Assembly: GCA_964490365.1 (NCBI GenBank)
Contig: CAZBAG010000001.1
Coordinates: forward strand, 129,512-193,511
Length of the DNA stretch: 64,000 nt
DNA from: an uncultured Candidatus Saccharibacteria bacterium
GTDB lineage: Bacteria > Patescibacteriota > Minisyncoccia > Phycocordibacterales > CSBR16-119
Direction of reading: 5' to 3'
This document shows, in pieces, positions 4,170 to 41,205 of the stretch (its first letter is position 1; every line of letters begins with the position of its first letter). A model generated the notes under the pieces. It worked only from the letters and a program-made list of their open reading frames with translations. It searched no databases and had not been told where the DNA came from. The translations under genes and the position numbers were made by a program.

Positions 4170-5273
4170 TTAAAGAAGTGCAATCACAATACCTGTTATT
4201 GCAAACACAACAGAAATAATCCAGTATCGCATAGTAATCTTTGCCCGTGACCACCCGATTGCTTCAAAGTGATGATGGACGGGAGCTACTCTAAAAATTC
4301 TACCGTTTGGCCCATAGAGTTTCTTTGAAATAATTTGCAAGAAAGAAGAAAGTGAAGTGAAAAACAATGGAAATCCAATCACTGGAAGTAAAAGTACTTG
4401 ATTGGTAAGAAACGCAATAACGGTAAGCGTAAGCGTAAGAGCTAACATACCTGTCTCCCCCATATAAAAACGAGCTGGTGGAATATTGAACCATAGGAAT
4501 GCAAGTATTGCCCCAGCAACAACAGCAGAAAAAGCTGCAATATCAATTTGGTTTTGGAAAAATGCAATCGTTGCATAGGCTGAAAATGTTGTAGCCATAA
4601 CGCCCCCCGCCAAACCGTCAATGCCGTCAATGACTCCACTTGAAAATACTGCGAGCATGACGAGTGCAAACACAGGAATAAACAACCAACCGAATTCAAG
4701 TACACTGTTAAATGTAAATGGAATATCGATAGCACTAATACCAAGCTTTGTGAAAAACCAATACCCAAAAGAAAGTCCTACGAGCGCCACAAAAGAAAAC
4801 ATCATTTTTCTTGGAAAACCATTTGCAAATTTTCCTTTCATGATAAACGAACACATGAGGTCATCTGCAAGCCCCCAGAGCGCACCTAATATGAGCGCAA
4901 TAAATGGCAAGAGTGTTTGGTTTTTACTCACGAAATTTATTTTCTGTGTCGCTACATTTGGAAAAAACTCTGCCAAGAGAAATAAGATTCCTGCACAAAG
5001 AGCAATACTGAGCCAAATCACAATACCACCCACCCGTGGAGTTTTCAGTTCTTCATGTGCGTTGTTAATTTTCTGAAATTCAGGAGAAATATCACCCGGC
5101 CTAACACCGAACTTGTTGAGCGGTGCCTCCTCGTCAATTTTATTTTCTTTACGCGCAACCTTTTTCCAAAGTTTATATCTATAAAAAATATTGGTAAGTC
5201 CTGGAGTAATAAGAATGCCCAACATGAAGGTGAGAACAACTGGCAAAAAAAGTTTTAGGAGACTTAAATCCAT
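4170..5273 (-). CDS. mraY: Phospho-N-acetylmuramoyl-pentapeptide transferase
   Basis: Polytopic membrane protein carrying the MraY-diagnostic motif (RVAPVHHHFEAIGW). Confidence 0.85.
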   Translation of the reverse strand: MDLSLLKLFLPVVLTFMLGILITPGLTNIFYRYKLWKKVARKENKIDEEAPLNKFGVRPGDISPEFQKINNAHEELKTPRVGGIVIWLSIALCAGILFLLAEFFPNVATQKINFVSKNQTLLPFIALILGALWGLADDLMCSFIMKGKFANGFPRKMMFSFVALVGLSFGYWFFTKLGISAIDIPFTFNSVLEFGWLFIPVFALVMLAVFSSGVIDGIDGLAGGVMATTFSAYATIAFFQNQIDIAAFSAVVAGAILAFLWFNIPPARFYMGETGMLALTLTLTVIAFLTNQVLLLPVIGFPLFFTSLSSFLQIISKKLYGPNGRIFRVAPVHHHFEAIGWSRAKITMRYWIISVVFAITGIVIALL

Positions 5274-5276
5274 ATT

Positions 5277-6269
5277 TTATAATTGTACTTCATTTATAAG
5301 CTTTAGCGTAGTACTTGATAACTTCTCGATATCGGTAAAACGATGCGCAAATGTTGAACCTAAGACGTTAGCAATAATCGTTTTTCCTTCTGGGGTTTTG
5401 AACGAAACAATTAGGTTTCCACCTGAAATATTCGTAAATCCAGTTTTTGATGCCGAAATACCAGCTACAAGTCCTGGGTTTGGATTTGTATTTATTGCAG
5501 TGTGTGAGGTGTTGCTTGCTGAAGTAAAGAGTTGTGAGTTAAACGATGTTGAAGAAAAGATATCTGGGTAAATCGAAACAGCGTAGTCAAAAAGATGCAC
5601 AATTTCTGAAGAAGTACTATAGCCACCATTTTTACCATCTTCTAAATCTAAACCTGATTCATTCAGAAAAACTGTATGGCTGAGTCCAAAACTTTGGGCT
5701 TTTGCATTCATAAGGTCAACAAAATACTGTACGGATGATTCTTCGGTGAGAAACCCTGCCTTGTGACCAACATGAAGCGACAATGCTCGTGTAGCGTCAT
5801 TTGAAGATGTAATTAACATAAAGCGAAGTAATTCATCTCTTCCCCATTTTTCATCGGCTAAAAGACCATTATCGCCCGTGAGACTGAGCGCTTCTTTTGG
5901 AATCGTAATGATTTCAGTTTGACTGATCTGCTCCATCGAAACAATTGCTGTCATGATTTTTGTCAGTGAAGCAAGAGGCATCACGGTTTCTGTGTCTTTG
6001 CCATAAATCACCTGCTTTGTTCCTGAATCAACGATCAAGACTGATGAGGCTTTTAAATCTAAAGATTCAAAAAAAACACTGAGTTTACTGTCAGTCATTT
6101 GAGAGATCAGTTCGTCTTGAGTTTCTTTGCTGATTTCTTCTGCAGAAATGTGCCTATGTGTTCCAAAAATATACGAAGACGCAAGCAACAGTGTCAACGC
6201 AAGAACGCCCAAACTTTGGCGCTCGCTTTTTGTAAGTTCATCGGTACGACTATACTGCAGAATTTTCAT
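5277..6269 (-). CDS. D-alanyl-D-alanine carboxypeptidase (PBP5/6-type serine peptidase S11)
   Basis: The SxxK (SLTK), SxN (SSND) and KTG (SKTG) motifs appear in order after an N-terminal anchor. Confidence 0.8.
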   Translation of the reverse strand: MKILQYSRTDELTKSERQSLGVLALTLLLASSYIFGTHRHISAEEISKETQDELISQMTDSKLSVFFESLDLKASSVLIVDSGTKQVIYGKDTETVMPLASLTKIMTAIVSMEQISQTEIITIPKEALSLTGDNGLLADEKWGRDELLRFMLITSSNDATRALSLHVGHKAGFLTEESSVQYFVDLMNAKAQSFGLSHTVFLNESGLDLEDGKNGGYSTSSEIVHLFDYAVSIYPDIFSSTSFNSQLFTSASNTSHTAINTNPNPGLVAGISASKTGFTNISGGNLIVSFKTPEGKTIIANVLGSTFAHRFTDIEKLSSTTLKLINEVQL

Positions 6270-7718: not shown

Positions 7719-8063
7719 ATGGGAGAAACTCTCAACCTTACTAAGCGAATGATCTGGAACGGTCCAACGGAATTTGAACTTGTTCAATCACTCCTAAGGG
7801 GCTCTGAAGTGAATTTCTGGATCCTGTCCGAAGATAGTGATCCGGGCGAAATTCCACCAGACAACCGGCCTTGTGTCGTGGTTGGAATAGAACGATCTTT
7901 TGATGAACCAATGGAGTACCATCTTGCGGTGCAAATGATCGGACTCAAGACACCAGCACGACAATACTTCAAGTATCGGCCTCTCACCCACCAAGGTGAA
8001 TGGGTTGGATGCTTGGACATGGGTCACAAGGCATACGAGGGTCACAGCTTCCGTATGCCTTGA
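7719..8063 (+). CDS. Hypothetical protein (114 aa), GC-rich cassette gene
   Basis: G+C is elevated by eye. The product has no recognisable family. It is flanked by its own promoter and a hairpin terminator. Confidence 0.5.
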   Translation: MGETLNLTKRMIWNGPTEFELVQSLLRGSEVNFWILSEDSDPGEIPPDNRPCVVVGIERSFDEPMEYHLAVQMIGLKTPARQYFKYRPLTHQGEWVGCLDMGHKAYEGHSFRMP

Positions 8064-9640: not shown

Positions 9641-10309
9641 TTAGGCGGGCACCTCTTCGGTGAAGAACTGTTGCGCCTTGAGCGTCTCGAGCGACTGCTC
9701 GTAGGTCGAGCGCGAGCTCTGCACCAAGTTCTGCGTCCAGCGTGCGATCGCCTTCATGGTCGTGTAGAAGTAGCGCTTTGCGAGGGCTTCGTACATCTCT
9801 TCGGTGATCTCACCGTTCTTCTCGATGTAGTCGTTCACCTCCTTGAGCTTCTTCGCACTCGTGTACACGATCTTGCCGGCGTTGGCTGCCGTGGTCGCCG
9901 CAGCGATGCTGTTGTAGTGGAGTGCGTTCTGAACCTCGCTGAAAGGTTCACCTTCGCTCACCACACCAGCGGTCTCGGCGATCTCAACCACCACGATGTT
10001 GAAGGGGATCTTCTGATCCTTTCCTTTTGTCACATCGAAGCTTGTGATACGTGCCATCATCCCCAACGGGAATCCGCTCTTGGGATACCCCTGGTGCATG
10101 ACCACCCCATCCTCGGTCTTCGTGAAATCCTGGTTCTTCACGCCAGCATTCGCGAGCAGGTTATACACCTTCGGTGATGCCTCGATCTTACCGCCGAGCT
10201 TGCTCAAGCGGTTGAGTTCGTGCACCATCTCAGGGCTCACTGCCGTACCCATGACCAGGGCTTGGATGCTTCCTTTGGTCGTCTTGCTCATGTGCTTTAC
10301 CGTCACCAT
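9641..10309 (-). CDS. Hypothetical protein (about 222 aa), strongly GC-rich cassette gene
   Basis: The highest G+C in the window by eye (roughly mid-50s %). The start is ambiguous between MVTVKH, MSKTTK and MQVHIK. The product is unrecognised and Ala/Val-rich. Confidence 0.5.
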   Translation of the reverse strand: MVTVKHMSKTTKGSIQALVMGTAVSPEMVHELNRLSKLGGKIEASPKVYNLLANAGVKNQDFTKTEDGVVMHQGYPKSGFPLGMMARITSFDVTKGKDQKIPFNIVVVEIAETAGVVSEGEPFSEVQNALHYNSIAAATTAANAGKIVYTSAKKLKEVNDYIEKNGEITEEMYEALAKRYFYTTMKAIARWTQNLVQSSRSTYEQSLETLKAQQFFTEEVPA

Positions 10310-10358
10310 CCTGTATATTGGGTTTTTGATGTGAACCTGCATTGGCTCACAAAGGAGT

Positions 10359-12704: not shown

Positions 12705-12795
12705 TTCCTAGCGAGGAGTATCGACAAGCTTGCTTGTATGATCTCCGAACGACGGAAATATACGAGACGAGCGAAGCGAGTGCTCTTATATTAAT
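12705..12795. repeat. Intergenic repeat element, copy 1 (about 85% identical over about 56 nt to the copy at 34878..34965)
   Basis: Shared core ATGATsTCCGArygACGrAAATATAyGAGACGArCGmAGyGAGTGCTCTTAT, plus a shared left edge tatttyctagcgag. Confidence 0.5.
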
Positions 12796-18197: not shown

Positions 18198-18473
18198 TTA
18201 TCGGAGGGTCTTCTCTATGAAGGCTTCCACTGCTTTCAGGTGACCGTTTTTGATCGCTTGCTTTGGTGAGCACCCAAAGACAATATGGGGTGCATTAAGC
18301 CATTTCTCGAGCCACTTTTCAGGTTTTTTATCACCACAATACTTTTTTGAAAAAGCAGTGGTCAACTCCCCCGTTAAGAAGTCCTCTGTGCGATGTGGGT
18401 TTTCTTCTCTTCCGCGAATAGGAGTAACGGCTGTTTCAGCTCCGACGGTCATAAGATTCAAGTCGAGGTCCAT
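18198..18473 (-). CDS. Hypothetical protein (91 aa), GC-rich cassette gene
   Basis: The leader is ctaaaaccaaacccATGG. G+C is elevated. It has its own TTGACA promoter and terminator. The family is unrecognised. Confidence 0.5.
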   Translation of the reverse strand: MDLDLNLMTVGAETAVTPIRGREENPHRTEDFLTGELTTAFSKKYCGDKKPEKWLEKWLNAPHIVFGCSPKQAIKNGHLKAVEAFIEKTLR

Positions 18474-23036: not shown

Positions 23037-23371
23037 CCGGAGCGGGGATCACCTCTGTCACGCCTTCAACTTGGAACCAAGGTAAGGTTTTGGATACATT
23101 TGAATCAGGTTAAACAAAAGTTACCCCTACATTCTGCCCACAAAAAAGACGACCATTTTGCGGGGCAGCCAAAGAACGTCTGATCGTCGAAGAGAATTAT
23201 ACGCTTCTCTTATTAAAAATGAAAGAACCCATCGCCTTGGCGATGGGTTCTCAGTTGGGATTGCAAACCCCAGGAGAACTGCGATTCTCCAAACTGCAGA
23301 AAAATTTTTTGTGCGCGTGAGGTTGAATCTAACAACAGCTGCCGCCCCGTGGCGGGATTCAAAAGAACAGG
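23037..23371 (-). ncRNA. Candidate structured non-coding RNA (about 335 nt) transcribed from the promoter at 23378..23405
   Basis: No ORF of 60 aa or more on the minus strand. It is bracketed by a consensus promoter and a terminator. It contains long perfect hairpins (gaacccatcgcc/ggcgatgggttc, ccgcc ccgt ggcgg). G+C is elevated. Confidence 0.3.
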
Positions 23372-23377
23372 AATTTG

Positions 23378-23405
23378 ACTATATCATATTTAATATATTT
23401 GTCAA
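23378..23405 (-). promoter_or_regulatory. Sigma70-like promoter TTGACA-16nt-TATAGT inside the 23.0-23.7 kb gene-free gap
   Basis: The minus strand reads gacgcTTGACAaatatattaaatatgaTATAGTcaaattcc. Confidence 0.5.
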
Positions 23406-23410
23406 GCGTC

Positions 23411-23445
23411 TATAGAAACAACAAAGGAGCCTCTAAGGCTCCTAG
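23411..23445 (-). terminator. Hairpin (aggagcc ttag aggctcct) plus T-run on the minus strand
   Basis: The minus strand reads ctaggagccttagaggctcctttgttgtttc. It separates two ORF-less units. Confidence 0.4.
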
Positions 23446-23610
23446 GTTAGAAATTATTTCTCAATCTGGAGGGGCGCGAATCTCCGAATATGCCTTGCAA
23501 GAAATGATGGGTTCTCAGCCCTATTTCCTGTTTAGATTGTGAATATAACTCCTGTGAAAGAACTATTACGGCGGTCGTGACTGTGTCATCCGTTTTACTT
23601 TTTGTTTTGG
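23446..23610 (-). ncRNA. Second candidate ORF-less transcript (about 165-190 nt)
   Basis: It lies between a TTGACA box at 23640-23645 (minus strand, with a weak -10) and the hairpin at 23411..23445. No ORF is present. Confidence 0.2.
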
Positions 23611-23644
23611 ATTTACTTTTTAAACTATTTTAAAGAAAATGTCA

Positions 23645-23682
23645 AGAAAAAAGCCAAACTCACCTTGTGAGTTTGGCTTTTT
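23645..23682 (-). terminator. Hairpin terminator downstream of the 23698..24033 gene
   Basis: gccaaactcac cttg tgagtttggc with T and A runs on both sides. Confidence 0.55.
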
Positions 23683-23697
23683 AGTAGGCACGTTGAC

Positions 23698-24033
23698 CTA
23701 CTTCTTCTTCCCGGTCTTCGTCTTGTGAGTATAGACAGATGATCGACCGAGCGCAGTAGTAAGCTGTCCGAATGGAACAATTCGAAGTCTCTTTGTTCCG
23801 AGAAGATTGGTGATGTACCGACGATCACTGCCGTCGGGCTTTGGGGACTCATCCTGATAAGGACTTGCCATGGGACGAACCTTGGCGGTAGCACAGCCAG
23901 AGGTCGCATGGTCCACACGATCATCACACTCGTCTTCGAAAAACTTGAGGATCTCAGGAGATGCCACATCTTCATCGGCACCACCTTCTTGAACAACAAG
24001 AATCTTCTTGTCTACTACTTCTGTCCTAAGCAT
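23698..24033 (-). CDS. Hypothetical acidic protein (111 aa), GC-rich cassette gene
   Basis: The leader is aaaaaaaaccaaaccaaaccATG. G+C is elevated. The family is unrecognised. Confidence 0.5.
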   Translation of the reverse strand: MLRTEVVDKKILVVQEGGADEDVASPEILKFFEDECDDRVDHATSGCATAKVRPMASPYQDESPKPDGSDRRYITNLLGTKRLRIVPFGQLTTALGRSSVYTHKTKTGKKK

Positions 24034-26226: not shown

Positions 26227-26634
26227 TCACAGTTTCGGCATCACCGGCTGGATGTAGGTCCCACCGTACAAGTTCCTGATCTCCAACATGTAGGTGGGGA
26301 CACCGTTCGGAAGCAGGGTAAACTTCACACCCTGTACAGCTTCCCAACCAATAGCTGAATCTGCAGAAGTGATACGCTCAAGGGTATCACGACCCTGAAT
26401 GAAGTACATCGGGAATTGAAGTGTGTCTTCTTTGTTGTACTTCACTGTTACGGTGCAGGTGCCTTTTCCTGTTTCAGGATTACGGCACTCCTCTTCCATA
26501 CCAACGATCTCCACCGACCTGCCGGCCATGTTGTGGAAATTCAACCCGACAGAGTCATTCGTAGCCTGTTGAGCACTCAGCGTGCTTGTGAATCCGAAAA
26601 CCATCGCGAACATGAGAAGGAGCTGTTTCATCAT
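26227..26634 (-). CDS. Small secreted protein (signal ...FTSTLSAQQ), GC-rich cassette gene 1 of 3 in tandem
   Basis: The start is MMKQLLLMFAMVFGFTSTLSAQ. G+C is elevated. It has its own consensus promoter. The mature part is unrecognised. Confidence 0.5.
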   Translation of the reverse strand: MMKQLLLMFAMVFGFTSTLSAQQATNDSVGLNFHNMAGRSVEIVGMEEECRNPETGKGTCTVTVKYNKEDTLQFPMYFIQGRDTLERITSADSAIGWEAVQGVKFTLLPNGVPTYMLEIRNLYGGTYIQPVMPKL

Positions 26635-26674
26635 CTGTTTGTTTGTACCCTGGTAAGAGGGTGGTTCGTTATCT

Positions 26675-26702
26675 ATTATACACAAAATAGCCTTTTTGTC
26701 AA
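26675..26702 (-). promoter_or_regulatory. Sigma70 consensus promoter TTGACA-16nt-TATAAT
   Basis: The minus strand reads TTGACAaaaaggctattttgtgTATAAT. Confidence 0.6.
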
Positions 26703-26718
26703 GTATATAAATCCAAGA

Positions 26719-26747
26719 GGAAACCCCTGCTGTGTGCAGGGGTTTTC
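26719..26747. terminator. Hairpin (aacccctgc tgtgtg caggggtt) plus T-run
   Basis: It separates tandem cassette genes 1 and 2. Confidence 0.5.
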
Positions 26748-26763
26748 TTACGTTATGATGTCC

Positions 26764-27195
26764 TTATTCAGGAACCAAGCCGGATGATTGTTCTTCTGTC
26801 GGCCAGACTTCAAAGGCAGTAACTTGTTGCCCCCCGAAGCATAGCTTCTCATCTTGAACTGAGAACATAGCCGTAGTGGCAAATTCATAGCCACCAAAAA
26901 CCTTGATAAGAAAGATAGGGGTTGTGCGAAAGTTCTCTTCTCCAACAACTCGTGGATAAAGGTAGAACTGTCCAACGACAGACTTATCCACGGCATCACC
27001 AGGAAGGAATAGTCGTGGTTTCCCCTCTTGTGTTGTGGAAACTTCGACACGTGACACATCGAACGAGATACCGCTGTGTTGCTGGTGTACAGGATTCAAC
27101 ACGTAGCCGCCATCACCAGTAGCTTTGGCATACTGAGCATTGGACATTACCGCGCCGATCAAACAGCAAAAAAGAAAGGACAGGAAAAATTTCAT
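26764..27195 (-). CDS. Small secreted protein (signal ...GAVMSNAQ), GC-rich cassette gene 2 of 3
   Basis: The start is MKFFLSFLFCCLIGAVMSNAQ. G+C is elevated. It has its own promoter. Confidence 0.5.
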   Translation of the reverse strand: MKFFLSFLFCCLIGAVMSNAQYAKATGDGGYVLNPVHQQHSGISFDVSRVEVSTTQEGKPRLFLPGDAVDKSVVGQFYLYPRVVGEENFRTTPIFLIKVFGGYEFATTAMFSVQDEKLCFGGQQVTAFEVWPTEEQSSGLVPE

Positions 27196-27213
27196 CTGGT
27201 TTTATTTTTTGCT

Positions 27214-27242
27214 ATAGTATCTAAATTTTCTTATTATGTCAA
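27214..27242 (-). promoter_or_regulatory. Sigma70-like promoter TTGACA-17nt-TACTAT
   Basis: The minus strand reads cTTGACAtaataagaaaatttagaTACTAT. Confidence 0.6.
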
Positions 27243-27243
27243 G

Positions 27244-27269
27244 AAAAAGCCCCCTCTTTCGAAGGGGCT
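27244..27269. terminator. Hairpin (gcccc tctttcgaa ggggc)
   Basis: It separates tandem cassette genes 2 and 3. Confidence 0.5.
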
Positions 27270-27290
27270 GGGAGTGTGGGCGCCGTAAAT

Positions 27291-27680
27291 CTACGGATAC
27301 CCTTGAGCGGTGTCGTCTAGGGTCACGCGCATTGCGTTTACCGGTAACTTGTCCACGTAAAGACGCTGGCCATCGAAGCTAAGGCGACCCTGGGGGTCAG
27401 GAACGAAAATCGCTCGTTCACCTTGAAGACTTTTCTTTATACGAACAGTAAACGTATGTTCGCATGAGCCAACCCCAAAGTGCACTGAGGTCACTGCATT
27501 CATTGATCCCTCATACAAGAAGATGAGGCCTATCGCCCCGTCACGATCATCTTGGAAAAGATCGATTTTGGGAGAAAGGACTTTTTCCTCCGTCACTTCT
27601 TGCACTTCTTTTTGCGCTGATACTGGGGCTGTCCAAGATGGGAACAGCACCAGAAGGCTGAAAATCTTAAGGTACTTCAT
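27291..27680 (-). CDS. Small secreted protein (signal ...SWTAPVSAQ), GC-rich cassette gene 3 of 3
   Basis: The start is MKYLKIFSLLVLFPSWTAPVSAQ. G+C is elevated. It has its own promoter. Confidence 0.5.
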   Translation of the reverse strand: MKYLKIFSLLVLFPSWTAPVSAQKEVQEVTEEKVLSPKIDLFQDDRDGAIGLIFLYEGSMNAVTSVHFGVGSCEHTFTVRIKKSLQGERAIFVPDPQGRLSFDGQRLYVDKLPVNAMRVTLDDTAQGYP

Positions 27681-34877: not shown

Positions 34878-34965
34878 CTAGCGAGAACGCAGGAAAATTT
34901 ATTTTCATGATGTCCGAGTGACGAAAATATATGAGACGAACGCAGTGAGTGCTCTTATTTTAGAC
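34878..34965. repeat. Intergenic repeat element, copy 2 (upstream of dnaK); matches 12705..12795
   Basis: About 85% identity over the ATGATGTCCGAGTGACG...GAGTGCTCTTAT core, plus the shared tattttctagcgag edge. Confidence 0.5.
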
Positions 34966-35943: not shown

Positions 35944-36474
35944 TTGTCAATGGCGAAAGTAAACAAAATCCAAGAAAAAATCCTTGAATTCCTAAACGGC
36001 AAAAAAGCCTCAGAAAAGAGTGTTTTATTTGAAGGCGTAGAAAGTACTGAGAACAGCAAGTACGCCCTTTCTAGGACGCTTAAAGGCCTTAAAGAGGGTG
36101 GTTTAGTGGAGGAAATAGAAACAGAACGATCGGCTTTCTACAAAATAACCCCTGAGGGACGAAACAAGCTCAGAAATATCCGCCTGTCTTCCCCAACAAG
36201 CTTGGTGTCTACAAACTGGGATGGTTTTTGGAGAATCGTGATCCTCGACCTTCCAGAAGATCGAAAAAGTGAAAGAAATTCCCTGCGCTATATTTTAAAA
36301 AAGGCGGGGTTTGTGTGTCTCAAAAATTCAGTTTGGTTTTCACCTTACCCGCTCGAACATTTGTTTATGAATATTAAAAAAGATATGGGACTCGGTGATG
36401 AATTGATTATTCTTGTCACACAATATATCGACCCAATTTCTGAAGAAAAGCTATTAGAGGTTTTTAAAGGGTAG
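35944..36474 (+). CDS. PaaX-like winged-helix transcriptional regulator
   Basis: An N-terminal wHTH plus a conserved WDGFW-containing C-terminal region, as in PaaX-family repressors. It is transcribed divergently from grpE. Confidence 0.5.
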   Translation: MSMAKVNKIQEKILEFLNGKKASEKSVLFEGVESTENSKYALSRTLKGLKEGGLVEEIETERSAFYKITPEGRNKLRNIRLSSPTSLVSTNWDGFWRIVILDLPEDRKSERNSLRYILKKAGFVCLKNSVWFSPYPLEHLFMNIKKDMGLGDELIILVTQYIDPISEEKLLEVFKG

Positions 36475-36916
36475 ATCTTTGAATAAGCTTAGATTGAATC
36501 CAATCTCTTAGATCACTTTTCACATTTTCAAAATCGGTGGCGTTAGACATCGCTACTTCAAGAGCTTTATTTGTAAGTTCATTTGCTGTTACATTCATTT
36601 CCATATCATTAATAATTAAAAAGAAAAGGAGAAAGGCAACAGATAATCTTTTATTTCCATTAGGGAATATATGACCTTTATTAATCTCATAAAATATAAA
36701 AGCTGCTTTATCTGATAATGTTGGATATAAATCTAAACCATCAAATTGAACTTTGGGCATTTCAATGACATTTTTTATTTTTGATTTATCAATTATTTTG
36801 TATGGTTCTATTGGCTCACCAATATCTAAAAACCTGTCGTAAAAGACATTGTAAATAACCCTAGCATTTTCCATGCTTATGTAATTAATTTGAGAGGATT
36901 TTTTCTCCTCGATCAT
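36464..36916 (-). CDS. doc: Doc/Fic-family toxin (death-on-curing)
   Basis: The Fic/Doc motif HxFx(D/N)GNKR is present as KGHIFPNGNKR; 150 aa. Confidence 0.75.
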   Translation of the reverse strand: MIEEKKSSQINYISMENARVIYNVFYDRFLDIGEPIEPYKIIDKSKIKNVIEMPKVQFDGLDLYPTLSDKAAFIFYEINKGHIFPNGNKRLSVAFLLFFLIINDMEMNVTANELTNKALEVAMSNATDFENVKSDLRDWIQSKLIQRSTL

Positions 36917-37100: not shown

Positions 37101-37153
37101 AATATATTGACCCAATTTCTGAAGAAAAATTATTGGAAGTTTTTAAAGGATAA
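37101..37153 (+). repeat. Direct duplicate of the 3' end of the 35944..36474 gene (matches 36418..36474 at about 90%)
   Basis: ATATTGACCCAATTTCTGAAGAAAAATTATTGGAAGTTTTTAAAGGATAA matches ATATCGACCCAATTTCTGAAGAAAAGCTATTAGAGGTTTTTAAAGGGTAG and encodes the same YIDPISEEKLLEVFKG* peptide. The two copies flank the doc-antitoxin module. Confidence 0.6.
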
Positions 37154-37154
37154 G

Positions 37155-37184
37155 AAAAAGGGCGTTCCGTTTGGAACGCCCTTT
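37155..37184. terminator. Hairpin terminator (gggcgttcc gttt ggaacgccc)
   Basis: A perfect 9-bp stem with A and T runs on both sides. It lies downstream of the 37211..37834 gene on the minus strand. Confidence 0.55.
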
Positions 37185-37210: not shown

Positions 37211-37834
37211 TCAGTAATCTCCTTCAAACATTCTGTCGAACCGCTCATCTGCGCGTCGCTGATTATCGTCATCTTCGCGTTGCTGGTCACTTACTTCTTG
37301 CATCTGATCAGCCACCTGGTCCAGAGACATGTCATCGAGCTCAGGATCTTCCTCTTCCCAAGCCCTACTTTGTTCATGACTCCACTCAAGTTGCATGATC
37401 TTGTTCGCACGACTCTCATTGGTGATCTCATGCCGAGTCCGCTTCAATACAAAGCGAGAAATCGTTGGGATATTATTTCCCTGATCATCCCACTTCGTTG
37501 AAGAGTTTACCCGGCGAACCACGATAGTGCGAGTTCCAAAGAAGTAGAACTCATCACCTTCTCTGAAGAAGGTTGCCCACGACTCGGTATTTGAGACATG
37601 GATCATGGGTCGCGGTTCACCTCGGCGGACCCTCAGAGTATCATTGAGCATCCAATGAGAGCTCACCATGGCGATCCACCAATCACTGACATCGAGATTG
37701 ATCGGAAGGCCGGCAACTTTCTTCGGGAGCACACTATCCTCGTGTTCTGTTTCAACGACCTCTCCCGCAAAGAAGTTCTTGAGACGTCCGATCAAAAGAC
37801 CCAGCACTTTATCAGAAAGAATGATCTTCTGCAT
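37211..37834 (-). CDS. Hypothetical protein with a highly acidic C-terminal tail (207 aa), GC-rich cassette gene
   Basis: G+C is elevated. It has its own TTGACA-17-TATATT promoter and its own terminator. The family is unrecognised. Confidence 0.5.
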   Translation of the reverse strand: MQKIILSDKVLGLLIGRLKNFFAGEVVETEHEDSVLPKKVAGLPINLDVSDWWIAMVSSHWMLNDTLRVRRGEPRPMIHVSNTESWATFFREGDEFYFFGTRTIVVRRVNSSTKWDDQGNNIPTISRFVLKRTRHEITNESRANKIMQLEWSHEQSRAWEEEDPELDDMSLDQVADQMQEVSDQQREDDDNQRRADERFDRMFEGDY

Positions 37835-37890
37835 CTTCGTAGGTTTTGAGCCAAGTTTCCTCGGCGGTTTGTACTTATTTTCTTAACTAT

Positions 37891-37919
37891 AATATAGCAT
37901 ATTTAATGCTATATGTCAA
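37891..37919 (-). promoter_or_regulatory. Sigma70-like promoter TTGACA-17nt-TATATT
   Basis: The minus strand reads aTTGACAtatagcattaaatatgcTATATT. Confidence 0.55.
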
Positions 37920-37922
37920 TAC

Positions 37923-39596
37923 TTACCTATTGAGGAACACTCTCGCTAATTGCACATCAAAATACGAAGTATTCCCCCCTACTTTACTTTTCACCGGTGA
38001 AAGATTCAGTTCGCCTGTTGCATCATAGAGTTTTTGAAACGTCACCAGAATATCTTTAAACTTCTTTCCCTTTGGCTTAAGATACGAGACTTCTTCTTTT
38101 TCAATCTTCCCTTCCATTACCAATTTTTCAATATGAGTTAAGACAGTTTCTTTCGTTAAGCCTCTTTCGACTGCAATATCATCAATACTTTTTTGTTCGA
38201 GCAGCAAAACTTTTGTTTTTTCAAACGTACTTGTTTTATCAAGTTCAGCTTCACGAGCTTGTACGTCAATCACTTGGATTGATCCTTCAGATCGAATGAT
38301 AAAATCTTCTTGGGATTTTTGTATTTCCTCTGGTGTTTTTTTGTGTAAATAGTCTTGTATGTGGGCCGACTTACTTCGAAACTTTTTATCAGCTTCAATA
38401 ATTTTTGGATGTACCATCAGCGCTTGAGCATTGAATCCCAAAAGCTTAAGCCCTTCTAACGTTCGTACACGAGAAAGCGCCACGTAGCCTTGTCCATATT
38501 CAAAAGCACGACCTAAATCGATCTCAGCGGCATCTAGGGACATTCCTTGGCTTTTGTGGACCGTAATAGCCCACGCCAGACGAAGTGGTACCTGGGCAAT
38601 AGAGGCGATGATTTTATCGCCATCTTCAATACTCCACGACACAGGTTCGATGAGTAATTCTTTACCTTGATTCGTGACAATAATCGGGTACCCAGTTTCC
38701 TTTTCAAAATCAATCACCTCACCGAGTGTGCCGTTTACATACCCCACTTCGAAATTGTTTTTCGTACACATCACCACCGCTCCGATTTTCAAACATAGAT
38801 TTTCTGGAGAAAGACAACTTTCTTTTAAACGTTGCACGTGGTTCCCCTTTCCCTTTGAAACCATCTCATAGTACTCTTCATCTTGATCAATTTTTGCGAG
38901 TTCTTCTTGGTTTATTTTATCGACATCTGCGTTGTGCGTATACAGTTTTGTGGACTTAATCACATCTTCAAAAGAAACATCGAGCCTGTCACGAAGTTCT
39001 TCAAATTCTTCTTCAACATCTCCACTACGGATACGGTCAAGAATCCCCAGCAAAGCATGATCTTCTTGACGGTGTTGTTCGGTGATATAGGCAACGAGCG
39101 GATTTACCTCTTTCCAAGCAGCTGACTCAAAAGCAAATTGGGTCGCTTCACCTTTTTTCGTGATTGGTGGAAGCTGAAAAAAGTCGCCCACGACGATAAC
39201 CTGCATGCCACCAAACGGTAGATTATTTCTCCTAAACGATTTACAGACTTTATTGACCGAATCAAAAAGATCTCCGGAGAGCATTGAAATTTCATCAATG
39301 ATGAGAACTTTTGTTTGCTCGTATCGCTTCCAAAGATATTTTTTACCTTCAAGTTCATCAACTTCGTAGTCAGTGATTTTCTGCCGAGCGCCAATGCCTG
39401 ACCATGAGTGAATGGTTACTCCGCCAATGTGTGTTGCGGCAATACCGGTTGAAGCAGTTATTGCCGCAGAAATATCATGTTCTTTCAGATACTTTGTGTA
39501 TTGATTTAAGACATATGTTTTACCCGCACCAGGAGCACCAGTGAGAAAAACATTGGCGCCAGTTTTTAGGATTGTGAGAGCGTCTGATTGAGTCAT
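37923..39596 (-). CDS. RecD/Pif1-like ATP-dependent DNA helicase (AAA_30 + UvrD_C-like) with a C-terminal HTH
   Basis: Walker A GAPGAGKT, Walker B IIDEISM and SF1 helicase motifs (...VHKSQG...); 557 aa. Confidence 0.7.
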   Translation of the reverse strand: MTQSDALTILKTGANVFLTGAPGAGKTYVLNQYTKYLKEHDISAAITASTGIAATHIGGVTIHSWSGIGARQKITDYEVDELEGKKYLWKRYEQTKVLIIDEISMLSGDLFDSVNKVCKSFRRNNLPFGGMQVIVVGDFFQLPPITKKGEATQFAFESAAWKEVNPLVAYITEQHRQEDHALLGILDRIRSGDVEEEFEELRDRLDVSFEDVIKSTKLYTHNADVDKINQEELAKIDQDEEYYEMVSKGKGNHVQRLKESCLSPENLCLKIGAVVMCTKNNFEVGYVNGTLGEVIDFEKETGYPIIVTNQGKELLIEPVSWSIEDGDKIIASIAQVPLRLAWAITVHKSQGMSLDAAEIDLGRAFEYGQGYVALSRVRTLEGLKLLGFNAQALMVHPKIIEADKKFRSKSAHIQDYLHKKTPEEIQKSQEDFIIRSEGSIQVIDVQAREAELDKTSTFEKTKVLLLEQKSIDDIAVERGLTKETVLTHIEKLVMEGKIEKEEVSYLKPKGKKFKDILVTFQKLYDATGELNLSPVKSKVGGNTSYFDVQLARVFLNR

Positions 39597-39618
39597 ACAG
39601 AAAGCATTTTACCATGAA

Positions 39619-39652
39619 ATAAAAAACGCCGACCCTTTAGGGGTCGGCGCTG
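39619..39652 (-). terminator. Hairpin terminator (gccgaccc ttta ggggtcggc) downstream of the 39671..40078 gene
   Basis: A perfect stem with a T-run on the minus strand. Confidence 0.55.
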
Positions 39653-39670
39653 CTTCTTTAGGTTTGTACT

Positions 39671-40078
39671 TTATCGTAGGGCCGCCAAGGCTTCTCCAAT
39701 TTTATTGTCGCCGTCACGATCAGGTGCAATGGCGATGATCTTATCCAGAAGCGCTTCCAGTGCTTGATTAGTGCTGTACCCACCAACTGGAGCCTGGCCA
39801 TCTAGCAAGTGCCCGCCTCCGTAGAACAATTTGAGTTTACATTTGGGCACGTGAGGCTGGGCATCACTGTCTAAAAAGAATATGACTTTGATGAGGCACA
39901 TCTTTCTGATGCTGTACTGGGAGTTCAAGTTTCGAGGCATAAAGCCAAACCCTGATGGTGCATGATGATCGATACAGTAATTAACCATCACGTTTGATCC
40001 TTTCCAATTCTTCTCAACAATCGTCTTCAGATCGTGGAGCTTCAATAAGGTCACATTGTATTCGAGCATGTCTTTCAT
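39671..40078 (-). CDS. Hypothetical protein (135 aa), GC-rich cassette gene
   Basis: The leader is gaaatagaaaccaaacccaaaccaacgtaccATG. G+C is elevated. The family is unrecognised. Confidence 0.5.
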   Translation of the reverse strand: MKDMLEYNVTLLKLHDLKTIVEKNWKGSNVMVNYCIDHHAPSGFGFMPRNLNSQYSIRKMCLIKVIFFLDSDAQPHVPKCKLKLFYGGGHLLDGQAPVGGYSTNQALEALLDKIIAIAPDRDGDNKIGEALAALR

Positions 40079-40109
40079 GGTACGTTGGTTTGGGTTTGGT
40101 TTCTATTTC

Positions 40110-40139
40110 ATACTATGTCATGTACAATAATTTTGTCAA
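40110..40139 (-). promoter_or_regulatory. Sigma70-like promoter TTGACA-18nt-TAGTAT
   Basis: The minus strand reads gTTGACAaaattattgtacatgacaTAGTAT, directly after the hairpin at 40146..40171. Confidence 0.5.
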
Positions 40140-40145
40140 CATAAG

Positions 40146-40171
40146 AAAGGCGCTCCGTAAGGAGCGCCTTT
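40146..40171. terminator. Hairpin (aggcgctcc gtaa ggagcgcct)
   Basis: A perfect 9-bp stem with a GNRA-type loop. It separates two tandem cassette genes. Confidence 0.55.
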
Positions 40172-40178
40172 GAAGAAG

Positions 40179-40703
40179 CTAGCGATGTACTCTGTTTGCC
40201 CTGTAGACACTAAACATGATCACTTGGTGGAGTGTCTTTGGATCAACGAACCGTGCCCTGATGTAAGTACGGCAATTTTTTGGATGAACACCTTGTAGCC
40301 CATTCAAAAACTTCAGTTTGAACATCCGCCTATTGATCAGGTACTGATCTTCACTACTACCCACGCCACTCGGTGCTGGAGTTGTGAAAACATACTCCAC
40401 GAGTCGCATATCGGAAGGTGGAACAAGAACCTCTTCTTCTCCATGCTCGGAAGAAGAGCCATTTTGACCTTCATACACAATTGGCACCGAAGCGTTGTTA
40501 TAGAAGGTTCTATAACGCCAGCGTTTAATGCAACCTGCCTTGCGCCACATTTTACGGTCAAAGTCTCGCCACTGCTTGAATGCTTCGATGAACTGCCTCT
40601 GATGTTCAGGAGATTCTCTTGTTCCAGATTTTATAATCTGAAAAGATTCCTCTAAGAGCTTGGTCCGCAACATAACGAGCTGACGTAGTTTGTCTGTAGC
40701 CAT
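40179..40703 (-). CDS. Hypothetical Trp/Arg-rich protein (174 aa), GC-rich cassette gene
   Basis: The start context is ccaccATGG. G+C is elevated. The family is unrecognised. Confidence 0.5.
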   Translation of the reverse strand: MATDKLRQLVMLRTKLLEESFQIIKSGTRESPEHQRQFIEAFKQWRDFDRKMWRKAGCIKRWRYRTFYNNASVPIVYEGQNGSSSEHGEEEVLVPPSDMRLVEYVFTTPAPSGVGSSEDQYLINRRMFKLKFLNGLQGVHPKNCRTYIRARFVDPKTLHQVIMFSVYRANRVHR

Positions 40704-40728
40704 GGTGGAACGTGGTTTGGTCTGGTTA

Positions 40729-40758
40729 TAAAATACAAGATTTAAGAGTCGTGGTCAA
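40729..40758 (-). promoter_or_regulatory. Sigma70-like promoter TTGACC-18nt-TATTTT
   Basis: The minus strand reads aTTGACCacgactcttaaatcttgTATTTT, directly after the hairpin that ends rpsI. Confidence 0.45.
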
Positions 40759-40766
40759 TAAAAACG

Positions 40767-40790
40767 AAAATCCCCCATAGGGGGGGATTT
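40767..40790. terminator. Hairpin terminator (atccccc atag gggggat) immediately after the rpsI stop
   Basis: A perfect stem followed by a T-run on the minus strand. Confidence 0.55.
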
Positions 40791-40791
40791 A

Positions 40792-41205
40792 TTATCGTTT
40801 GCTCCATTGCTTTCTCTTTCGAGCAGCTTGTGCGAGACCGGCCTTTCGTCGTTCTCGTGATCGTGGATCTCGTTTGAGGAAACCAAGTTTCTTCATTGAA
40901 GACCGAAGAGATTCATCAAATTTTACGAGAGCTCGAGTGATACCATGTCGGATAGCATCTGCTTGTCCGTTGATACCCCCTCCGGAAACCATAACTGAAA
41001 CAGTGAATGATTTTGGTGCTTCTTGTTTATCAAAAGGATCAGTAACAACTTTTCGTAGATTATCTACGGTAAAGTATTCGTTTAAATCTTTATCATTAAT
41101 AACAAAAGATGTTTTTGACGCAGGAGAAATGCGAACACGCGCTGTCGATGTTTTTCTTCGTCCTACTGCTTCTATGTATTTTTCTTTTGTTTTAGCTGTT
41201 ACCAT
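40792..41205 (-). CDS. rpsI: 30S ribosomal protein S9
   Basis: GRRKTSTARV and the C-terminal ...RKRKQWSKR. Confidence 0.9.
   Translation of the reverse strand: MVTAKTKEKYIEAVGRRKTSTARVRISPASKTSFVINDKDLNEYFTVDNLRKVVTDPFDKQEAPKSFTVSVMVSGGGINGQADAIRHGITRALVKFDESLRSSMKKLGFLKRDPRSRERRKAGLAQAARKRKQWSKR

Follow-up and report, generated by a model that had tools for sequence, protein, structure and literature searches.

Two putative accessory gene cassettes with A/C-rich leaders in a variable chromosomal slot between rpsI and a helicase gene

The region between the ribosomal protein gene rpsI and a helicase gene was analysed in a 64,000-nucleotide (nt) window, the whole stretch of DNA considered here, in which an earlier annotation made from the sequence (the original prediction) had described two tandem cassettes encoding proteins of 135 and 174 amino acids (aa). 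All features of this region lie on the minus strand. The upstream boundary of the slot is rpsI itself (40792..41205; ribosomal protein uS9), the last gene of an rpoA-rplQ-rplM-rpsI run, which was recognized from the list of open reading frames (ORFs) and from the Ribosomal_S9 Pfam label on the syntenic gene in L018 and L019 (L001 to L025 are the labels of the related loci compared with the window, and P0002 is that of a protein homolog). The ribosomal-protein operon ends in an intrinsic terminator with a 9-bp stem and a T-run (40768..40790), found by the terminator scan and conserved in L006. The 174-aa unit follows, with a predicted sigma-70-type promoter TTGACC-17-TATTTT (40730..40758; promoter scan, conserved in L006), a 5′ leader of 26 nt, ATAACCAGACCAAACCACGTTCCACC (40704..40729), which is A/C-rich, lacks a Shine-Dalgarno (SD) site, has the start context ACCATGG and is predicted to be unstructured, the Arg-rich orphan gene (40179..40703) and a scanned intrinsic terminator with an 11-bp stem and a T-run (40146..40171), 25 of whose 30 bases are kept in L006. 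The 135-aa unit comprises a predicted promoter TTGACA-16-CATAGT (40112..40139; promoter scan), whose −10 box is TATAAT in the orthologs of L007 and L009, a 33-nt leader (40079..40111) that ends in AGAAACCAAACCCAAACCAACGTACC, has GAAACCAAACCCAAACCAACGTACC directly before the ATG and is likewise A/C-rich, SD-less and predicted to be unstructured, the orphan gene (39671..40078) and a scanned intrinsic terminator, GCGCCGACCC...GGGTCGGCG, consisting of a hairpin and a T-run (39625..39651). The conserved downstream boundary is a Pif1/RecD-like helicase with a C-terminal HTH_40 domain (37923..39596; Pfam PIF1, 2.3e-37). Its extended −10 element, TGGTAAAAT (39606..39614), was read from the sequence and lies 9 nt before the helicase ATG at a position that is conserved in relatives, which would imply a leaderless or nearly leaderless mRNA.

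At the level of sequence prediction, the region is thus composed of two complete, independent transcription units behind the terminator of the ribosomal-protein operon. Both units have a near-consensus TTGAC[AC] promoter, a 26- to 33-nt A/C-rich leader, an ORF with a raised G+C content at third codon positions (GC3) and a terminator of their own, the signals being predicted by consensus scans. The two ORFs were found where the original prediction had placed them, with the addition that they are read from the minus strand (40703..40179 and 40078..39671). It had also assigned a hairpin and a TTGACA or TTGACC promoter to the front of each ORF. The promoters were retained, and the hairpins, which in the three spacers are short perfect G+C stems followed by T-runs, were reassigned as intrinsic terminators of the units lying upstream. 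Apart from these terminators, no direct or inverted repeats that could be scars of insertion were detected around the two cassettes.

The window is ordinary chromosome, encoding aminoacyl-tRNA synthetases, cell-wall genes of the MurG/FtsW/MraY type, DnaK/DnaJ/GrpE, DnaB and ribosomal proteins. No integrase or transposase was present among the 20 larger ORFs that were scanned, all of which were housekeeping genes, a scan that did not cover every small ORF. No Rfam families or tRNAs were detected in the 64-kb window. At the helicase locus, the related sequences come from metagenome-assembled genomes that carry the label Candidatus Saccharibacteria or Paceibacterota, and judged by these labels the organism is a member of the candidate phyla radiation (Patescibacteria) with a small genome. 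The junctions of the rpsI-helicase region were also present in independent assemblies (L001 to L005). Therefore, the arrangement is not an assembly chimera.

The ratio of nonsynonymous to synonymous substitution rates (dN/dS) was 0.23 for the 174-aa gene and 0.32 to 0.44 for the 135-aa gene, compared with 0.03 to 0.06 for the helicase in the same genome pairs. Consequently, both ORFs are under purifying selection and are real protein genes, and their products evolve several-fold (about 5 to 13 times) faster than the adjoining helicase. The synonymous divergence (dS) between the window and L006 was about 1.45 for the 174-aa gene and for the helicase, with synonymous sites saturated. The dS of the 135-aa gene was 0.37 to 0.48, below that of the adjoining helicase (0.9 to 1.55), which hints at recombination or at synonymous constraint. 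Among 5.8 billion proteins, the 174-aa protein had a single homolog (P0002, 56% identity) and the 135-aa protein two (79% and 72% identity), and a profile search of 1.84 billion cluster representatives added three or four further distant members to the 135-aa family.

The claim that the proteins have no recognizable domains was borne out, with nothing above threshold for either protein in Pfam, PHROGs, PADLOC and NCBIfam and no match to the sequence profiles of PDB. AlphaFold2 gave no usable model of the 174-aa protein, the predicted local distance difference test score (pLDDT) being 44. For the 135-aa protein, it gave a moderate alpha/beta model (pLDDT 69; predicted template modelling score 0.65), which had no fold match in PDB or BFVD at E ≤ 0.001, the best template modelling scores being about 0.4. 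The two proteins are new orphan families. Their fast evolution and presence/absence variation allow only the guess that they act in conflict or interaction with a phage, a host or a neighbour.

The raised G+C content reported in the original prediction was confirmed. The region has a G+C content of 0.449 compared with 0.394 for the window, and the GC3 values of the 135-aa gene (0.54) and the 174-aa gene (0.45) exceed the gene median of 0.31, ranking 69 and 62, respectively, among the 71 window genes; those of the flanking genes are 0.22 (rpsI) and 0.35 (helicase). Across lineages with saturated synonymous sites, GC3 in the 135-aa family stays at 0.50 to 0.64, and recent import followed by gradual drift to host composition therefore does not explain the high values. 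The description of the 174-aa protein as W/R-rich was half right: arginine makes up 10.9% of its residues compared with 4.1% in core proteins, but it contains only three tryptophans (1.7% vs. 0.9%).

The description of the genes as inserted cassettes was supported by the related loci. In L014 the slot is empty, the gap of 55 nt between rpsI and the helicase gene containing one terminator and the helicase −10 box, and the slot content varies among close relatives. The window has the 174 + 135 pair, L006 a conserved noncoding element of about 120 nt and the 174-aa homolog without the 135-aa gene, L007 the same element and the 135-aa homolog, and L009 the 135-aa homolog together with a secreted protein of 321 aa (Por_Secre_tail domain). 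Unrelated genes occupy the slot in L012 (154 aa), L013 (121 aa), L015 (141 and 152 aa), L016 (147 aa) and L021 (123 aa). The occupants were mutually unrelated according to BLASTP and profile searches, and the profiles of the 135- and 174-aa families matched only their own orthologs among them. On the helicase tree, four slot states (empty, the 174 + 135 pair, the 174-aa homolog alone and the unrelated 147-aa gene) occurred among genomes with at least 93% helicase identity.

The two families have different distributions in the slot. The 135-aa family is confined to the rpsI-helicase slot in related candidate-phyla-radiation genomes and was found directly after rpsI also in the distant L018 and L019 (helicase identity 73% to 75%). 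Therefore, it is an old slot resident that was repeatedly lost or replaced. The 174-aa family was seen only in the window and its sister L006 among the 5.8 billion proteins. Each gene also occurred alone, the 174-aa family in L006 and the 135-aa family in L007 and L018, which argues against an obligate pair. Two further likenesses that were considered among slot proteins were rejected, namely a weak 174-like motif in the 218-aa slot gene of L019 (hhalign probability 9%) and an N-terminal likeness among the 207-, 154- and 152-aa proteins, which had no statistical support.

The leaders of the two units had been called highly similar and their design near-identical. Their best local alignment contained 19 matches over 23 columns with two one-base gaps. 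With a score of 22, the pair ranked 9th among the 2556 pairs of 30-nt gene upstream regions in the window (mean 10.5, standard deviation 2.6), and composition-preserving shuffles reached this score in 0.2% of trials (P = 0.002). The likeness is thus above chance, but "near-identical" was an overstatement, and the likeness is not unique, since the leader of the 135-aa gene scored equally against that of an unrelated 91-aa gene at 18473 and several AT-rich low-complexity upstream pairs scored as high or higher. In the last 25 nt, the two leaders are 88% and 80% A+C with 8% G. The predicted minimum free energy over 51 nt was −2.3 kcal/mol for the 174-aa gene leader (z = 0.25) and −1.9 kcal/mol for the 135-aa gene leader. 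Both have A at −3, in the contexts ACCATGG and ACCATGA. In the 135-aa gene, the leader and the coding sequence evolve at similar rates, but the leader stays A/C-rich, a CCAAA unit being gained or lost among orthologs. The leader of the 174-aa gene had no exact match in the metagenome contigs of the Joint Genome Institute.

The shared design recurred in about a dozen further accessory genes nearby and was a property of a larger gene class, defined as the 11 window genes with GC3 ≥ 0.44. A TTGAC[AC] motif was present 35 to 100 nt upstream of 10 of these 11 genes and of 5 of the 60 others (Fisher p = 6.6e-8), and the last 25 upstream bases were 76% A+C in the class vs. 53% in the remaining genes (p = 3e-5). 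Thus, the common mechanism proposed for the two cassettes was supported, as a trait of the whole class rather than of the pair only. Half of the CCAAACC sites on both strands of the window (7 of 14) lie inside the leaders of four cassette genes. None of the high-GC3 genes tested had a known domain, and several encode signal-peptide-like proteins. About 30 units of this plan were found across the window and the related loci, and the pooled composition of all 35 scanned leaders was A 0.44, C 0.25, G 0.12 and T 0.19. The folding energy of the start region was no different from that of AT-rich core genes despite the higher G+C content of the cassettes, which fits an avoidance of G in cassette leaders. 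Leader structure was therefore rejected as a trait that distinguishes cassettes.

SD-like 4-mers (GGAG, GAGG, AGGA) at −20 to −5 were found in none of the 71 window genes, compared with 3.0 expected. Among the 23 core first genes with a −10-like hexamer, the hexamer ended 6 to 11 nt from the ATG in 12, and many first genes in the window have TGnTAnAAT 6 to 11 nt before the ATG. The positions of these elements suggest that leaderless or nearly leaderless mRNAs are widespread among the core genes.

The noncoding ends of the cassettes were conserved around changing ORFs. Compared with L006, the window is identical at 147 of the last 150 positions of rpsI, at 57 of 60 in the promoter and leader of the 174-aa gene and at 26 of 26 in the leader itself; the identity drops to about 65% exactly at the ATG and recovers at the terminator. 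The gap downstream of the helicase gene is a second variable slot, occupied in the window by a 207-aa orphan gene (37211..37834, minus strand; GC3 0.53) with the predicted promoter TTGACA-17-TATATT and a 56-nt leader containing a GCCGAG-GAAA-CTTGGC hairpin (37835..37919), followed by an intrinsic terminator (37157..37184). This promoter and 5′ untranslated region (UTR) recur with 68% to 84% identity in L013, L016/L022 and L025, giving four loci with the window, and precede four unrelated ORFs (207 aa in the window; 93, 147 and 218 aa in the relatives) whose first 90 coding bases are at background identity (0.48 to 0.55). The 6-bp hairpin is paired in all four sequences, one pair showing a compensatory change, which with four sequences is only suggestive. 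At the other end of the cassettes, the terminator type GCGCCGACCC..GGGTCGGCG closes three unrelated slot genes, those of 135 aa, 154 aa (L012) and 121 aa (L013). Therefore, the modules at both ends, promoter-leader and terminator, persist longer than the ORFs that they enclose.

We interpret the two units as single-gene accessory cassettes resembling phage morons, which occupy a chromosomal hotspot and share a leader design for SD-independent initiation, and we give this reading a probability of roughly 0.6. The directly observed or computed components are the anatomy, the coding status, the variability of the slot, the association of features in the gene class, the absence of SD motifs and the predicted lack of leader structure. 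The two leaders would then be alike through a lineage-wide design for leadered accessory mRNAs. Since such leaders avoid G and A does not pair with C, they could offer the ribosome a single-stranded landing pad, which might act like the C/A-rich enhancers and standby sites of E. coli and Salmonella, with ribosomal protein S1 as the probable mediator, and which would have to function without any SD site. The promoter-leader and terminator modules would stay conserved while the enclosed ORF diverges or is replaced, with recombination inside the conserved flanks as the probable driver of cassette turnover.

Several observations weigh against this interpretation. The promoters and terminators are consensus matches only, and the lack of SD pairing is deduced purely from the missing motif. 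The leader design is a tendency and no strict rule, with exceptions in the leader of the 135-aa family member in L019, which is longer and not A/C-rich, and in that of a 233-aa gene, which is short and not CA-rich; low structure around the start codon is not special to cassettes. The sharp boundary at the ATG of the 174-aa gene was seen in one genome pair only and could reflect a recent recombination tract, because the 3′ end of rpsI is nearly identical in the same pair. Finally, the persistently high GC3 is left without an explanation by the cassette reading.

An extended version of the cassette reading would account for GC3 as well, but we regard it as speculative and rather unlikely. Here, gene expression would be organized in two tiers, with leaderless mRNAs for the core genes and fluid accessory genes carried in plug-in modules, each consisting of a strong −35-box promoter, a leader that lacks an SD site and is C/A-rich or bears a hairpin, and a terminator. 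The noncoding ends would serve as homology arms at fixed hotspots, and biased gene conversion linked to recombination would keep GC3 high. If true, this architecture would be comparable to integron cassettes or phage morons, but with promoters carried along and no recombinase involved.

The likeness of the leaders might also reflect homology, one promoter-leader module having been duplicated or transferred so that it now drives two unrelated ORFs. The shuffle test (P = 0.002) and the perfect conservation of the 174-aa gene leader in L006 are in keeping with this, and the sharing of a module across unrelated ORFs has a precedent in the lineage in the leader of the 207-aa cassette. However, the −10 boxes and the spacers between −35 and −10 of the two units do not align, and what they share comes down to some 20 nt of A/C sequence of low complexity, made up of a short word of the (CCAAA)n type and CGTNCC. 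The equal likeness of the 135-aa gene leader to the unrelated leader at 18473 also speaks against homology, as does the shifting number of CCAAA units among orthologs, since such words arise easily by slippage. Moreover, about 5 of 2556 pairs are expected at P ≤ 0.002, and the pair is no outlier once this number is allowed for. We therefore consider homology unlikely, and of the two alternatives offered in the original prediction, we favour a common mechanism or design over a common origin of the leaders. The opposite view, that the resemblance is base composition and chance and that the ORFs are ordinary hypothetical genes with nothing in common, draws on the AT-rich low-complexity pairs that score at least as high and on the fact that the finding was picked by eye after the fact. 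It has already been largely refuted and deserves little credence, because the class-level statistics are strong and independent of the leader pair, the shuffle test preserves composition and the leader of the 174-aa gene is invariant across saturated synonymous divergence. In its observations, comprising the ORFs, the signals, the G+C content, the absence of domains and an above-chance likeness of the leaders, the original prediction was upheld overall.

It is similarly doubtful that the cassettes are remnants of a phage or mobile element, be it as true morons or as cassettes of the integron type that a recombinase brought in. Their own promoters and terminators, deviating G+C content and absence from the same site in relatives match the definition of a moron (PMC3594210), and a Fic/DOC gene in the neighbourhood is flanked by a 52-nt duplication. 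Nevertheless, the flanks are core genes, the larger window ORFs scanned included no integrase or transposase, and neither protein had a match in 50,697 phage records (tblastn) or IMG/VR. The leader module of the 207-aa cassette and the promoter pattern of the 135-aa unit were absent from viral contigs, attC core sites were absent from the three spacers, and the 135-aa family is vertically stable in the slot. It is very improbable that the 174- and 135-aa genes function as a pair co-regulated through a shared leader, for example as a toxin-antitoxin system or a two-component defence module. The genes are adjacent on the same strand and encode small, fast-evolving proteins in a variable region near Fic/DOC and PaaX-like genes, as might be expected of such a pair; yet they have separate promoters and terminators, each is found alone in relatives, and no toxin-antitoxin or defence match was obtained in PADLOC or Pfam, nor above threshold in NCBIfam or PHROG.

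As moron-like cassettes, the two units can be set beside several known systems. Phage morons are independent transcription units inserted between conserved phage genes (PMC3594210). In common with them, each unit consists of a single ORF with its own promoter and factor-independent terminator, both predicted here, deviates in G+C content from its neighbours, sits between genes that are adjacent in relatives and varies in content among close relatives. In contrast to morons, the cassettes lie in a bacterial chromosome between housekeeping genes, with no phage or prophage and no phage homologs, the 135-aa family has long been inherited vertically in the slot, and the leaders are SD-less and C/A-rich. 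What is new here is the occurrence of moron-like autonomous cassettes with SD-less C/A-rich leaders in a chromosome of the candidate phyla radiation.

Integron gene cassettes are recognized by attC, an imperfect palindrome with RYYYAAC and GTTRRRY cores, and are usually promoterless, an adjacent IntI tyrosine recombinase and a common promoter serving the array. They also form tandem single-ORF units that are unrelated to one another and mostly of unassigned function, at a fixed chromosomal position with a content that varies among relatives. Unlike them, the units described here have no attC in the three spacers and no recombinase among the scanned ORFs, and every unit has its own predicted promoter and a simple terminator hairpin. 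Bacterial pangenomes contain hotspots for accessory and defence genes flanked by core genes. The slot has the same conserved flanks, a cargo that changes rapidly among close relatives and an empty-site allele, but its cargo is one or two tiny orphan genes without recognizable defence domains, and its conserved parts are regulatory modules.

Initiation independent of SD sites is reportedly known from Bacteroidota, where ribosome profiling of Flavobacterium johnsoniae is said to have revealed A-rich leaders and a Kozak-like A at −3. The absence of SD motifs, the A-rich, unstructured upstream regions and the A at −3 agree with the present leaders. However, the phylum is another one, the promoters here are of the classical TTGACA/TATAAT type and not of the Bacteroidota type, and only the accessory genes have C-rich leaders, the core genes appearing to be leaderless. 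Among enterobacteria, Salmonella and E. coli have ACA and C/A-rich motifs that act as translational enhancers (PMC3879156), and unstructured 5′ tails of the CA series raise translation via ribosome standby (PMC5934652). Like these enhancers and tails, the leaders have an A/C-rich, G-poor, unstructured tract directly before the start codon, to which the 30S subunit or ribosomal protein S1 could plausibly bind. The enterobacterial elements assist an SD site, whereas here there is none and the leader would act alone.

Bacteria of the candidate phyla radiation cannot be cultured alone. If the cassette reading is true, one small genome has two SD-independent modes of initiation, leaderless for core genes and with an A/C-rich leader for accessory genes. 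This would provide a sequence rule for spotting accessory genes, better calling of start codons and, for the engineering of these organisms, a supply of compact expression signals. Exchangeable ORFs inside conserved regulatory modules would likewise illustrate how tiny symbiont genomes maintain a fast-changing set of genes without visible mobile-element machinery.

Further units of the high-GC3 class are distributed over the window. On the plus strand, a 114-aa orphan gene (7719..8063; GC3 0.47) has a TTGACA-17-TATTAT promoter, the leader CAACGTAAACCAACACAACAACC and a terminator. On the minus strand, a 91-aa orphan (18198..18473; GC3 0.47) follows a TTGACA promoter and a leader ending in CCTAAAACCAAACCC, and a 111-aa orphan (23698..24033; GC3 0.46) follows a TTGACA-16-TATAAT promoter and a leader ending in AAAAAAAACCAAACCAAACCAAACC, each with a terminator. 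Three consecutive minus-strand units (26227..27680), each with a TTGACA promoter and a terminator, encode signal-peptide-like orphans of 129, 143 and 135 aa (GC3 0.44 to 0.61). The 233-aa gene with the short, non-CA-rich leader (9641..10342, minus strand) is promoted by TTGACA and, with a GC3 of 0.79, deviates further in composition than any other window gene; the only family that it matched, weakly, was DUF7303 (E = 0.003). At about 23440-23650 and 23200-23430 on the minus strand, a consensus TTGACA promoter and a terminator hairpin enclose no credible ORF, the first unit containing only a 7-codon ORF. These ORF-less units may be small RNAs; against Rfam, they gave nothing at the gathering score and only weak matches at E < 1.

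The related slots contained further noncoding elements, for which Rfam gave no credible known RNA. The window lacks the conserved element of about 120 nt, which lies behind the rpsI terminator in L006 (176-327), L007 (about 60-200) and L012 (about 1890-2040). It has two hairpins, GGGGAAACAnnTGTTTCCCC and AGAAACCGTGGGTTTCT, and no Rfam match, and a second ACGATAATAAA-plus-terminator motif comes after it in L006. The 121-aa slot gene of L013 and its 141-aa homolog in L015 are preceded by a long 5′ UTR (about 5470-5563 and about 4940-5030, respectively) with the motif GAAATTCYTnCYGTAyGGTAnGTCG.... Unlike the A/C-rich leaders, this UTR contains G and seems to be structured; it has no Rfam match and could be a regulatory RNA leader. 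The 321-aa slot protein of L009 (697-1662) carries its Por_Secre_tail domain as a C-terminal sorting domain of type IX secretion, which is unexpected for a bacterium of the candidate phyla radiation.

Two repeats were observed in the window. The 3′ coding end of the PaaX-like gene (35944..36474) is present twice, as a 52-nt direct repeat (36422-36473 and 37101-37152; 88% identical). Between the two copies lies a segment of very low G+C content (0.27 to 0.30) with the Fic/DOC gene (36916..36464). Relatives have the cassette terminator immediately next to the end of the PaaX-like gene, and the Fic/DOC segment looks like an insertion with target duplication. An intergenic repeat of about 56 nt (12738-12793 and 34907-34962; 84% identical), with a similar sequence in the L013 slot at about 5200-5290, may be a small dispersed repeat or an RNA element.

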